Shown: positions 5,128 through 56,331, counted from the first letter of the stretch. The stretch is DNA of 64,000 nucleotides from an uncultured Rickettsiales bacterium (GCA_944391075.1 CALXSG010000001.1:6381-70380), one strand, 5' to 3'. A program made the numbers and translations. The notes: generated by a model not told the origin, from the letters alone.

Positions 5128-5433
5128 CTTGTCTTTTATAAAATAATATGCAATTATTGAATTGAATAATTATTATGTGAACCCGTAATTATTTATAGTC
5201 TGAAAACTATACAAGAAGCGGTTAAGAATATTTTAGGAAATATTATGAAATTAAATATTATAATATTTAAAACCGATAAAAATAATAATGTGTTTTGTTA
5301 CTCCTATAACAAGACAACCGGAGGGTGTGGCTATGTCCAGAACTCCGGTTTAAAAACCACTGACTGTCTTCTTGCAGTATTTTCAGCCTCCGGTTCTTAG
5401 GGTTCAGAACCAAAGGTTAAGGATATAATATGA
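5128..5433 (+). repeat. Copy A of a ~306-bp inverted repeat with a GC-rich structured core (candidate ncRNA or mobile-element relic)
   Basis: Aligns without indels to the reverse complement of 56027..56331, with 28 mismatches in 306 by my hand alignment. The core acaagacaaccggagggtgtggctatgtccagaactccggtttaaaaaccactgactgtc...cctccggttcttagggttca is far more GC-rich than its surroundings. Confidence 0.9.
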
Positions 5434-5592
5434 AAAATGAACAAACTTTAAATAAAAATACATTATATAATCGATTTTTTAATACATATAATGAGATGCA
5501 ATATATCATAATTTCAACTTATAGTATATAATTATTATTGACAAACTAAAATTGTTTTTTATTATTAATAATAATTTAAAGTTGTATATAAT

Positions 5593-5769
5593 ATGTTATT
5601 AAGAAAAATACTTCTATTTTTAATAATATTGAGTCTAATATTGATCTTTGGTATTTATATTGTTTTATATATTAATAATTTTGATAAATTGTCATTATTT
5701 TCAAAAATATTTCATATAATACTTCTTGCTATGACTATAATACCATTTTTTATATTAAATGAAAAATAA
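5593..5769 (+). CDS. Possible small two-TM membrane peptide (58 aa)
   Basis: Hand translation gives MLLRKILLFLIILSLILIFGIYIVLYINNFDKLSLFSKIFHIILLAMTIIPFFILNEK*. It is too short for the supplied ORF track, and hydrophobic ORFs are easy to obtain in T-rich DNA. Confidence 0.2.
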   Translation: MLLRKILLFLIILSLILIFGIYIVLYINNFDKLSLFSKIFHIILLAMTIIPFFILNEK

Positions 5770-5773
5770 TTGA

Positions 5774-7618
5774 TTATATTTTCTTCATTAGAATTCTTAA
5801 TGAATTTAATATAGCTATTAAACATACTCCAACATCAGCAAATACAGCGCCCCATATACTTGCATGTCCCATTACACCTAAAAGCAGAATAGCAATTTTT
5901 ATACTAATAGAAAAGTATATATTTTCTTTTGCAATATTAATAGTTCGTTTTGATATTTTTATTGATTTAGCTAGACTTTCAAGGTTATCATTAATTATAA
6001 CTATATCAGCAGATTCTATTGCTACATCAGAACCAATATTACCCATGGCTATACCAATATCAGCTCTTGCTAATGCTGGTGCATCATTTATACCATCGCC
6101 AACAAATGATACCCTAATATTTTTATTGTTTTCCATAATATTTTCAAGTTTTTCAATCTTATCAGCTGGTAATAATTCACTATGAAATTCACTAAGATTT
6201 AATTGTGTTGCAACATTTTCCGCAACAGATTTTTTATCACCTGTTAGCATAATAGTTTTTTGTATGCCAATTTTGTATAAATCTTGAATGGCTTTTTTTG
6301 CATTAGATTTTATTTGATCGGCAATCACTAAATAACCTACATATTTATTGTTTATTGCCATATAAACTATTGTTCCAATTTTATTTATAGTTTCAAAATT
6401 TATATTAAATTTTTGCATTATTTTTTCATTACCAATATAAATTAAATCATTGTCAATTTTTGCTTCAATACCTTTTCCTTGAATTTCTTTAATATCTTTA
6501 ATTTTATTTAATTCTATATCTTTATTGTATTTATTTTTAATTGATTTAGCTATTGGGTGATTAGAATAATATTCTGCATAACTTGCATATTTTAAAAATT
6601 CTTCTTCTATAATATCTATATTATGTATTTCACTAACTTCAAACTTTCCCCTAGTAAGTGTACCAGTTTTATCAAAAACAAAATATTTAATCTTTGATAA
6701 TAATTCTAAAAAATTTCCACCTTTGACTAAAATGCCATATTTTGATGCTAACCCAATTCCAGCAAAAAAGCTTAAAGGAACAGAAATTACCAATGCACAA
6801 GGGCAAGATACTACTAAAAATACCATTGATCTATAAATCCATTTTGAAAATTCTTCATTTAATATAAATGGTGGTAATACAGCAATTAATACAGCCAAAC
6901 CAACAACTATTGGAGTATAAATTTTAGCAAATTTAGTAATAAAATGTTCTACTTTTGCTTTTTTATTTGTAGCATTTTCTATTAAATCTAATATTTTAGA
7001 TGCTGTTGATTCTGTATATTTTTTGCTAACTTTTACCTTTAATATATTTGATAAGTTAATACAGCCACTTAATATTTCATCTTTAATTTCTACTGACTGT
7101 GGCATAGATTCGCCGGTTAAGGCTGATGTATCAATATTTGATTGGCCTTCTACAATTATACCATCTAATGGTACTCTTTCACCGGGTTTTATAATTATAA
7201 TGTCATTAATATTAATTTCTTCGGGATTTACTTTTTCTATTTTTCCATTTTTTTCAATATTGGCATAATCAGCTTTAATATTAACAAGTTTAGAAATAGA
7301 TTTTCTAGAATTATTTACAGCATAACTTTGAAAAAACTCGCCTATTTGATAAAATAATATAATAGCAATAGCTTCTGTATATTCTCCTAAAAAGAATGCA
7401 ACAAAACTAGCAAGTACCATTAAAAAATTTTCGTCAAATATTTCACCACTTAAAATATTTTTAAAAGACTTTTCCAAAATTTCATAACCAACAATTAAAT
7501 AACTTAATATATAAAGCGATAATTTAGCATATAAATTAATTGGTGATAATATTGCAATAGTAAAAATTATTGAAGATATAATAATTTTTATTAATAGATT
7601 TTTTAATTTTTTATTCAT
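5774..7618 (-). CDS. Heavy-metal (Zn/Cd/Co or Cu type) translocating P1B-type ATPase
   Basis: SCPCALVISVP (CPC metal site), DKTGTLT (phosphorylation site), SNHPIAKSI (HP motif), MLTGD and GDGINDAPAL. There is no N-terminal HMA domain; that domain is encoded separately upstream. Confidence 0.92.
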   Translation of the reverse strand: MNKKLKNLLIKIIISSIIFTIAILSPINLYAKLSLYILSYLIVGYEILEKSFKNILSGEIFDENFLMVLASFVAFFLGEYTEAIAIILFYQIGEFFQSYAVNNSRKSISKLVNIKADYANIEKNGKIEKVNPEEININDIIIIKPGERVPLDGIIVEGQSNIDTSALTGESMPQSVEIKDEILSGCINLSNILKVKVSKKYTESTASKILDLIENATNKKAKVEHFITKFAKIYTPIVVGLAVLIAVLPPFILNEEFSKWIYRSMVFLVVSCPCALVISVPLSFFAGIGLASKYGILVKGGNFLELLSKIKYFVFDKTGTLTRGKFEVSEIHNIDIIEEEFLKYASYAEYYSNHPIAKSIKNKYNKDIELNKIKDIKEIQGKGIEAKIDNDLIYIGNEKIMQKFNINFETINKIGTIVYMAINNKYVGYLVIADQIKSNAKKAIQDLYKIGIQKTIMLTGDKKSVAENVATQLNLSEFHSELLPADKIEKLENIMENNKNIRVSFVGDGINDAPALARADIGIAMGNIGSDVAIESADIVIINDNLESLAKSIKISKRTINIAKENIYFSISIKIAILLLGVMGHASIWGAVFADVGVCLIAILNSLRILMKKI

Positions 7619-7630
7619 AAAAACACCTTT

Positions 7631-7846
7631 TTATATTATTTCAGCATCTGGTTCAATTTTTTTAATAATATTTTTAGATTTTTCTAAAATATTAGAAAAC
7701 TCTTCATCTTTTGCATCAAGTGTAAATTTTTCAGTTAAAAAATTAATAGAAACATCATTAACATTTTCTAATTGCTTTATTTTATCTTCCATTTTTAAAG
7801 CACAATTAGCACAATCAATACCTGTAATTTTAAAAACTTTTTTCAT
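7631..7846 (-). CDS. Heavy-metal-associated (HMA) domain metallochaperone, CopZ-like
   Basis: 71 aa with GIDCANCALKMEDKI (the CxxC of the HMA fold), 12 nt upstream of the P-type ATPase on the same strand. Confidence 0.8.
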   Translation of the reverse strand: MKKVFKITGIDCANCALKMEDKIKQLENVNDVSINFLTEKFTLDAKDEEFSNILEKSKNIIKKIEPDAEII

Positions 7847-55300: not shown

Positions 55301-55497
55301 TTGGTATTTTTATGGTAGAAATGATAAAAGAATTAGCTAACTTTTTTATAAATGCCTTTTCATTATTTGTTAATTTATTTGCTGAAAATGCAATTAAATT
55401 ATTCGAAATATTTCGTATAACGGGTGGTGGTGGTCAATCATAATAAAAAACATTATTTTTCTAGACTTTTAAAAAATATGTTTTTATAATAGTTTGT

Positions 55498-55587
55498 GGA
55501 TAGATGGCTGAGCGGTCGAAAGCACTGGTCTTGAAAACCAGCGAGGGCGCAAGTCCTCCGGGGGTTCGAATCCCTCTCTATCCGCCA
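55498..55587 (+). tRNA. tRNA-Ser (anticodon UGA), class II with a long variable arm
   Basis: Hand-folded: acceptor ggataga/tctatcc, anticodon arm ctggt-ctTGAaa-accag, long variable arm cgagggcgcaagtcctccg, T arm ggggg-ttcgaat-ccctc, discriminator G, encoded CCA. Confidence 0.9.
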
Positions 55588-55736
55588 TTTATTAATCTCA
55601 TATCTTCTATAAATATTATTGTAAGTACTTTGTTAAAATTATTGTATAATGAGTTATTATAATGTATATAATCATATAAATTATTTAATTAAATAGATAA
55701 TTATAAAATATTTTTATTAATAATGCGAAAATATTA

Positions 55737-55940
55737 TCAATTATAATCAAAATATGATAAAAAAGAAATTTTATTCATATAATCATTTAAACTAAGATTT
55801 AATTTTTCACATATTCTAGGTAAATATTCTCTATTTAATCTAATTCTTCTTTTTTCTATTTTTTGAGCTTTTTGAAAATCTATATTTAAATATCTTACTA
55901 TTTCTCTCATTGAAATGTTTTTTTAATATTCCTAATTCTT
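55737..55940 (-). pseudogene. Decayed XRE-family helix-turn-helix gene remnant
   Basis: The 57-codon ORF (55910..55737) MREIVRYLNIDFQKAQKIEKRRIRLNREYLPRICEKLNLSLNDYM.. looks like helices 2-5 of an XRE HTH. The expected preceding segment RLKELGILKK sits in another frame across an A7 run and is bounded by stops. Confidence 0.45.
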
Positions 55941-56026
55941 TTAGTCTTTATCCTAAATATATTTTTGTTTCATTTCTAGGTAGATTATATATTTTATCTA
56001 AAATAGTGTTAAATTATTATCTTTTA

Positions 56027-56331
56027 TCATATTATGTCCTTAACCTTTGGTTTTGAACCCTAAGAACCGGAGGTTAACGATACTGCTATCAGACAGTCAG
56101 TGGTTTTTAAACCAGAGTTCTGGACATAGCCACACCCTCCGGTTGTCTTGTTATGGGAATAGCAAAACACATTATTATTTTTATCGGTTTTAAATATTAT
56201 AATATTTAATTTCATAATATTTCCTAAAATATTTTAACCGCTCTATGATTGGTTGTGACACTACGAATAATTATGGGTTCACATAATAATTATTCAATTC
56301 AATAATTATATATTATTTTATAAAAGACAAG
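56027..56331 (-). repeat. Copy B of the ~306-bp inverted repeat (reverse complement of copy A)
   Basis: See copy A. Weaker similarity continues to about 56350. The repeat lies between the HTH remnant/tRNA-Ser and the terminator of the substrate-binding-protein gene. Confidence 0.9.

Follow-up and report, generated by a model that had tools for sequence, protein, structure and literature searches.

In the RNA phages MS2 and Qbeta, long-distance RNA pairing couples translation of the replicase to that of the coat gene, and among dispersed DNA repeats the Rickettsia palindromic elements and bacterial miniature inverted-repeat transposable elements (MITEs) are known as units of 100-150 bp, inserted within genes regardless of orientation. 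The hok/mok mRNA combines a long-distance fold-back between tac and fbi, coupled covariation and a metastable 5' pairing, and the Shine-Dalgarno (SD) sequence of mok is masked by an anti-SD, with translation of mok, not its product, being needed (PMC9841398). Two further reports describe translated upstream open reading frames (ORFs) in structured leaders controlling a downstream gene, one located after an M. tuberculosis B12 riboswitch (PMC11260477) and the other a small ORF of the mgtA region (PMC8092293). Here we analyze a unit of approximately 310 nt that is present as two inverted copies in a 64,000-nt stretch of DNA (the window; GCA_944391075.1 CALXSG010000001.1:6381-70380) from an uncultured Rickettsiales bacterium. 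Judged from the sequences, the two repeats are probably, although with considerable room for doubt, orphaned copies of a genus-restricted structured leader that would be gated by translation. The best explanation of the unit is a cassette made up of an upstream block (a probable promoter), a folded 5' leader of ~250 nt, and an upstream ORF of 51-72 codons that would run through the 3' half of the fold and end on or next to the following start codon.

A covarying fold

Already in a plain MAFFT alignment of 11 copies, before any model fitting, RNAalifold found long-range pairs with many compensatory changes. A covariance model was built, 19 matches (18 of them full-length) were aligned as alignment A6, and a structure of nine helices was written by hand from the sequences. 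In this structure 90.6% of the cells are paired, and 28 of the 53 pairs have changed on both sides among the 18-19 copies. None of 500 shuffles reached any of five structure measures, and the covariation score of 0.301 compares with 0.05-0.10 when the partners were slid 1-3 columns. G-U pairs are frequent (e.g. G3:U38 in 13 copies) and mark the strand shown as that of the RNA. The covariation is unusually rich for so few copies and includes pseudoknotted long-range helices; it shows the repeat to be more than repeated DNA, with a predicted fold that is kept by compensatory change. In the left copy of the window the elements of the fold are as follows.

5164-5171 / 5187-5194, + strand: hairpin P1, GAATAATT/AATTATTT, with segment A in its loop
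5179-5184 and 5400-5405, + strand: long-range helix A:C, between A (GAACCC, P1 loop) and C (GGGTTC, P6 loop)
5195-5198 / 5207-5210, + strand: hairpin P2, ATAG/CTAT, three of four pairs compensatory, with L2 as its loop
5200-5206 and 5380-5386, + strand: long-range helix L2:L2', CTGAAAA (P2 loop) with TTTTCAG, five of seven pairs compensatory
5212-5218 and 5368-5374, + strand: long-range helix H:H', CAAGAAG with CTTCTTG (P5 loop), all seven pairs compensatory
5218-5223, + strand: segment B, GCGGTT, alternative partner of A
5295-5300 / 5307-5312, + strand: hairpin P3, TTGTTA/TAACAA, five of six pairs compensatory, loop TCCTA (5302-5306)
5318-5323 / 5343-5348, + strand: hairpin P4, CCGGAG/CTCCGG, invariant, 100% paired with zero variation
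5363-5366 / 5375-5378, + strand: hairpin P5, ACTG/CAGT, with H' as its loop
5387-5393, + strand: CCTCCGG, a second possible partner of CCGGAGG in P4
5392-5397 / 5406-5411, + strand: hairpin P6, GGTTCT/AGAACC, with C as its loop

The helices A:C, L2:L2' and H:H' are nested and tie the 5' untranslated region (5'UTR) to the 3' part of the unit. The 6-8-mers forming H:H' and L2:L2' differ in nearly every copy, and both helices are matched in 11 of the 18 copies; for H:H' perfect cognate 7-mers occur in 11/18 copies, with 10 different sequences. The arms of P1 also vary among the copies (GAATAACT/AGTTATT, GAATACCG/CGGTATT, GAATAGTTG/CAACTATT, GGGTAATT/AATTATCC), and relatives carry an optional covarying hairpin inserted just 3' of P4. 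Segment A covaries with both B and C, as two copies from genome G001 have GAGTCC together with GACTC and GGACTC/GGGCTC. Since A:B and A:C both follow the change from GAACC to GAGTC, A appears to have two mutually exclusive partners, the nearby B or the distal C, and this alternative suggests a co-transcriptional or switchable fold.

A side observation concerns P4, where an invariant GGAGG-N8-ATG opens a mini-ORF (MSRTPV*) in another frame at 5333-5353 (+) and 56107-56127 (-); in most copies it has 6-11 codons.

The upstream ORF

The following elements of the left copy concern its transcription and translation.

5128-5160, + strand: candidate promoter, a conserved upstream block beginning CTTGNNTTTTA..., with conserved columns in alignment A2
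5234-5239 (SD, TAGGAA), 5245 (ATG) and 5398-5400 (TAG), + strand: upstream ORF of 51 codons

The ATG of the upstream ORF is mostly preceded by AGGA or AAGG, and the frame is open in 16 of the 18 copies, with 0 stops compared to 75 and 119 in the other two frames over the same spans. Indels in it have lengths divisible by three, or else compensation follows within about 20 nt, and consequently part of the C-terminal half is read in different frames in different copies. What is conserved is the openness of the frame, not the peptide. An N-terminal and central motif, I-F..DKNN..F.Y..TGGxGYVQNSG, is nevertheless conserved, and its most conserved part, TGGxGYVQNSG, coincides with the invariant P4 hairpin. 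Homologues were found as 17 small proteins, all unnamed, in a collection of 5.8 billion proteins, while a search of the peptide against Pfam gave no match.

The SD of the upstream ORF is complementary to the apical loop of P3, and the two covary (TAGGAA/TTCCTA, TAAGGAC/GTCCTTA, ATAAGGAT/ATCCTTAT, TAAGGCAT/ATGCCTTA, TGAGA/TCTCA). At its other end, the stop codon shares bases with the following start or directly adjoins it in at least nine copies (ATGA, TAAATG, TAAAATG, TGATATG). A subfamily ending in TAG, to which both window copies and L119 (~1360-1395) belong, has the TAG in the P6 loop and a frame that runs on open for 10 further codons, ending exactly at a TGA that shares bases with the following ATG; in the window these extensions from TAG to ATGA are 5398-5433 and 56027-56062, and one public gene call reads the TAG as Q. 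The TAG could be a leaky stop, a site of reinitiation or a recent nonsense change. A -1 frameshift at the conserved U UUA AAA was considered and rejected, as the -1 frame, read from the sequence, meets a TGA after two codons.

These features would fit the following course of events. In a closed state the SD of the upstream ORF would be held by the P3 loop, leaving the ORF untranslated and the 5'UTR zipped onto its 3' part. When the SD was freed by some signal, ribosomes would enter the ORF, cross P3 and P4 and then melt the fold-back helices, and by terminating at the next start codon they would, through translational coupling, switch on the gene that follows, be it one for an XRE-family regulator, an adhesin, a glycosyltransferase or a type IV secretion system (T4SS).

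Distribution and downstream genes

A similarity search of 61 related genomes found the unit confined to the window's own genus, with several copies per genome (at most about 6), often at contig ends. The invariant core ACCGGAG-N5-GG-N2-ATGTCCAGAA is present in 6/9 genomes of the genus and in 0/117 other genomes of the family. When 185,579 species genomes were scanned with the core pattern, unit-bearing matches occurred only in metagenome-assembled genomes (MAGs) of "uncultured Rickettsiales" from gut, and a metagenome scan for the core added one copy. Fourteen other core matches were dismissed as chance: they lie inside coding sequence of unrelated taxa or in an insertion sequence (IS) copy (three places, one Granulosicoccaceae MAG), and share nothing further with the unit. 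With Rfam 15, the whole window at the gathering threshold gave two tRNAs only, and 5000-5800 at E up to 10 gave chance matches only, with 17-23 bits against cut-offs of 39-60. Because default-filter cmsearch misses copies in long sources, negative covariance-model results on long loci were left unused. Collectively, the sequences point to an undescribed family of structured RNA without an Rfam match, restricted to one alphaproteobacterial genus of uncultured AT-rich gut "Rickettsiales" MAGs.

Several known kinds of element were considered and set aside. A riboswitch or T-box leader was rejected in view of the lacking Rfam match and the downstream genes, which are regulators and surface proteins, not metabolic. 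For an integron attC site, T-box, tmRNA, IS110 bridge RNA, IscB/HEARO and retron there was neither a fitting neighbour gene (recombinase, reverse transcriptase, IscB) nor an Rfam match.

In all copies the unit is co-oriented with the following gene. The usual partner is a small XRE-family helix-turn-helix (HTH) gene, found behind three copies of G007, two copies of G001, L110, L111 and L119, and as a remnant behind the right window copy. Genes for giant or haemagglutinin-like proteins follow the unit in G005:C2, L107, L120 and L124, and further copies precede GT2 glycosyltransferase genes or a virB2-B3-B4 operon (T4SS). These XRE regulators, giant adhesins, glycosyltransferases and the T4SS operon are surface and host-interaction genes. 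In the ENA contigs L107 and L120, the copies ahead of giant proteins (over 2000 aa) have Peptidase_M15_4 and DUF3489 genes upstream, a phage-like neighbourhood.

The two window copies

Both window copies appear from their sequences to be orphaned, the left one intact and the right one decayed with a dead XRE gene. They and their neighbouring ORFs are located as follows.

5122-5451, + strand: left copy, comprising upstream block, structured leader, upstream ORF and the start of a short downstream ORF
5430-5531, + strand: 33-codon ORF behind the left copy, starting at the ATGA overlap, without similarity to the XRE partners
56009-56334, - strand: right copy, a decayed and probably recombinant copy of the unit
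55737-56030, - strand: XRE-family HTH pseudogene of the right copy, with two frameshifts and an in-frame TAA; a 57-codon tail ORF (55737-55910) is left

The left copy scores 264.6 bits with the covariance model (5162-5416), the right one lower with 239 bits. Homology of the left copy to its orthologous copy in the relative G005:C6 begins exactly at 5122, and all its helices are intact. A tblastn search with five XRE partners found nothing downstream of it, and it seems to be an orphan that has kept its fold and is missing its partner gene. Between this copy and the P-type ATPase gene lies a 58-codon ORF (5593-5769, +) for a two-helix hydrophobic peptide, found at the same place in G005:C6; this peptide resembles none of the XRE partners, and a family search gave no match.

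In the right copy P2, L2:L2' and H:H' are broken (TGTCACAA versus TCGTTAAC; CATAGAG versus CTGATAG), one pair of P4 has become a weaker G-U (CTCTGG) and the loop of P3 carries mutations (TTCCCA). The decay of its XRE gene was judged against the intact 85-aa XRE of L119 and against L110; the match from the genome search holds internal stops, and the remnant has a weak HTH_19 match. The H segment of the right copy (CATAGAG) pairs with H' of G005:C6 and L119 (CTCTATG), and its H' (CTGATAG) with H of L119 (CTATCAG). These crossed matches indicate that the right copy and L119 are reciprocal 5'/3' recombinants of two helix types. Altogether 7/18 copies are chimeras.

As DNA, the pair was compared by a repeat search of the window, by MAFFT and by global alignment. 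Globally, 5125-5451 (+) and 56009-56334 (-) are 89.3% identical over 327 versus 326 nt, with 34 mismatches and one 1-nt gap, which is an extra G5226 in the left copy. The repeat search returned two ungapped arms with a one-base offset, 5227-5451/56009-56233 (225 nt, 92%) and 5125-5225/56234-56334 (101 nt, 85%), and the longest identical run is 71 bp (5227-5297). The pair is far beyond chance, because the window has no second inverted pair longer than 61 nt at 70%. Of the 34 mismatches, 19 lie in five short segments, 5194-5216 (12), 5298-5305 (3) and 5370-5386 (7), the latter in two clusters (5370-5373 and 5381-5386), and these mismatch-rich segments coincide with the variable RNA helices.

An earlier note on this DNA had aligned 5128-5433 with 56027-56331 without indels and counted 28 mismatches in 306. 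The inverted match is real and the count essentially right (27 mismatches in the same range), but one 1-nt gap is present. The long spacers that it saw around both copies are borne out by the ORF lists, and the enclosed ~50 kb does consist of housekeeping genes, including the P-type ATPase, polA, ychF and tRNA-Ser (55498-55584). We likewise agree that the pair is not a composite transposon or IS pair, as no transposase ORF lies in or beside either copy and the enclosed 50 kb is core genome. The whole-genome count that it proposed gave no copies beyond the two, since in the 1.16-Mb assembly (35 contigs) the unit is present only in this pair. What had been overlooked was the nature of the repeat, which we take to be the structured leader of an mRNA, including an upstream ORF that is translated.

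Inversion and genome rearrangement

The proposal that the pair is a substrate for a large inversion fared less uniformly. With a 71-bp identical run, a recA gene present and copies of the family that recombine, the pair is a plausible RecA substrate, but ongoing inversion is unsupported: about 20 public contigs with identical trxB and about 20 with identical SBP, coming from many samples, are all in the window's arrangement. From sample to sample neither copy varies (100% identity), and the 11% divergence between the two persists. On contig L110 the left flank (MscS, trxB, spacer) is 92.8% identical to the window and is followed by a 0.86-kb repeat-rich insert, the element and an XRE gene of the type belonging to the right copy. 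The order MscS-trxB-element-XRE matches the junction expected from an inversion between the two copies. Inversion thus has partial support as something that could occur or may have left a trace in the past, and none as an ongoing process. As DNA the pair appears to be an incidental 50-kb inverted repeat, able to recombine and apparently fixed in one orientation, and as a genome rearrangement a diverged inverted repeat of this kind is ordinary.

A synteny comparison with G005, G008, G001, G003 and G006 placed the four flanks on different contigs, with gene order scrambled throughout, and a specific 50-kb inversion can therefore not be singled out. Elements or fragments of them lie at several synteny breakpoints, and they resemble evolutionary hot spots of rearrangement more than a switch in operation; the unit is usable as a marker of rearrangement breakpoints in these genomes.

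Further observations concern the fluidity of the genus. Between genomes sharing 82-96% DNA identity (G005, L047-L051; G008, G001 and G003, L112-L118) gene order is broken into blocks of a few kilobases, and dispersed tandem-like repeat clusters lie at many block ends; this is either unusually fluid synteny or MAG mis-assembly. In two relatives, at L110 1938-2795 and L047 (G005:C8) 6367-7130, the first 19 nt of the element (window 5122-5140) are present twice, and between them lies a 0.8-kb insert composed of the genome's dispersed 70-200-bp repeats. The window is without this insert, which could reflect an insertion with duplication or a deletion between the 19-bp repeats. Several copies of G002 and G007 carry, inside the invariant P4 loop, a MITE-like insert of ~290 bp with 26-bp inverted ends (AGACATCATTAACAGGTATTTTGCAA...), as seen at L035 (G007:C74) 152-693, at the 5' junctions L037 and L040 and at the 3' junctions L038 and L039. 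In every case the insert takes the place of GGCTATG at one and the same position, suggesting that a mobile element targets the P4 hairpin.

Weighing the explanations

Some of the data weigh against a translation-gated leader. Two G001 copies are without a clear SD and without SD:P3 pairing, H:H' is mismatched in 7/18 copies, so that either the unit can do without this helix or the mismatched copies are dead, and the reading leaves the invariant GGAGG-N8-ATG mini-ORF in P4 unexplained. The copies are related, and the shuffle statistics overstate their independence. The model behind alignment A6 already included L2:L2' and H:H', and fitting to it slightly favours these helices; their segments, however, contain no gaps and lie between invariant blocks, and RNAalifold found them without such fitting. 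A sigma-70 scan in this AT-rich DNA gave 12 sites against 10 expected, no better than shuffles.

The unit might instead be a selfish dispersed repeat, similar to a MITE or a Rickettsia palindromic element, that spreads through the genome and scrambles it, with hairpins reflecting DNA-level or incidental RNA folding and an open frame that tolerates read-through. The several copies in each relative's genome, often at contig ends, the patchy distribution over 6/9 genomes of one genus and the recombinant chimeras would all be expected of such a repeat, as would the copies and partial copies at synteny breakpoints (G005:C8 keeps the first 44 nt only, and the junctions in G005, L110 and L123 differ). 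We nevertheless find it unlikely, since the ends carry neither terminal inverted repeats nor target duplications, copy number is low, the unit always lies upstream of and co-oriented with a gene, with a precise stop/start overlap, and the covarying SD:anti-SD and the G-U pairs are strand-specific features of RNA. Its identification as a MITE or palindromic element proper was rejected on the ends and on the common orientation of all copies with their downstream genes. Still less probable is that the pair serves to invert the 50-kb segment, as a programmed or a recurrent switch. Although the 71-bp identical run, RecA and the alternative junction in L110 speak for it, about 20 assemblies for each junction show a single orientation, the two copies differ by 11% and do not change from sample to sample, GC skew in the window has no break at the repeats, and the ORF lists of the flanks hold no recombinase gene adjoining either copy; on the counts of recombinase and orientation a site-specific invertible switch was rejected.

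Two other explanations accept the RNA fold. In one, which we hold to be quite improbable, the locus resembles a type I toxin-antitoxin system in which 5'-3' fold-back silences the mRNA for a toxic peptide of 51-72 aa, in the manner of hok or aapA, with XRE perhaps as a second controller. The size of the ORF, the masked SD, the covarying long-distance fold-back and the multicopy chromosomal distribution do resemble hok/aapA (PMC9841398), and the N-terminal and central peptide motif is conserved; but that motif coincides with the invariant P4 hairpin, the C-terminal half is unconserved and in shifted frames in some copies, the peptide has neither a hydrophobic helix nor a Pfam match, no antisense RNA gene is evident (the promoter scan being uninformative), and the terminator scan of the unit found none. 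In the other, a small RNA would be set free from the cassette, namely its 5' domain P1-P2-H-B of about 65-90 nt, behind which lies a U-rich tract. This RNA would recognise only the 3' domain of its own mRNA, through the type-specific loops A, L2 and H, much as antisense RNAs use kissing loops. Each long-range contact uses a hairpin loop on one side or on both, the 7-mers are hypervariable and still match their partners, A:B covaries and is then followed by TAAATATTTT, and P5 and H:H' can hardly coexist for steric reasons, as no linker separates H' from the 3' arm of P5 (a geometry inferred from sequence). As there is no canonical terminator after B, and as the two halves lie on one strand about 150 nt apart, which makes intramolecular pairing simpler, a released small RNA has in our view little likelihood. 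The leader gated by translation is the reading we prefer.

An extension of the leader reading, which we put forward as doubtful, is that the hypervariable cognate 6-8-mers of L2:L2', H:H' and A:C act as an "address code", by which a given leader, or else a small RNA derived from the leader's 5' domain, would recognise no 3' domain but its own. If so, paralogous cassettes in one cell would be regulated independently, recombination would yield mismatched, silenced chimeras such as the right window copy, and the unit would represent a same-strand, self-addressed family of riboregulators with diversifying selection on the pairing segments.

Comparison with known systems

Like the Rickettsia palindromic elements and MITEs, the unit is dispersed and hairpin-forming and keeps frames open in AT-rich "Rickettsiales"-like genomes. 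It differs from them in being ~310 bp long and intergenic, in always sharing the orientation of the next gene and being coupled to it, and in carrying an SD and a start codon. With the upstream ORFs and leader-peptide regulators mentioned above (PMC11260477, PMC8092293) it shares a translated ORF in a structured 5' leader before a gene, whereas those ORFs are short and not folded onto their own UTR, and the unit is without a recognisable ligand-binding aptamer. The analogy to MS2 and Qbeta is that translation of the upstream frame would melt a long-range helix and permit downstream initiation; here, however, the helices involve the 5'UTR and are type-specific, and the masking concerns the SD of the upstream ORF.

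The closest resemblance in design is to hok/mok/Sok of plasmid R1 and its chromosomal homologues. Here the downstream gene encodes no membrane toxin but an XRE regulator, an adhesin, a glycosyltransferase or a T4SS component. The small hydrophobic membrane toxin ORF of hok (about 50 aa) has no counterpart in the upstream peptides, which are without a long hydrophobic stretch or a Pfam match, a Sok-like antisense RNA was not seen (the promoter scan being uninformative), and there is no sequence or Rfam similarity. In common are a leader ORF of about 50-70 codons whose translation, by analogy, and not its product would drive the next cistron, a predicted stop/start coupling of this ORF, an SD apparently masked by a covarying anti-SD in the P3 loop, and a 5' element (A) with an alternative nearby partner, like the metastable structure of hok. 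The covarying long-distance fold-back is also found, although its probable partner is the 3' part of the leader ORF and not the 3'UTR as in hok. If the leader reading is true, the unit is a compact natural case of translation-gated mRNA folding outside toxin-antitoxin systems, which would share the design logic of hok/mok without being a member of that family.

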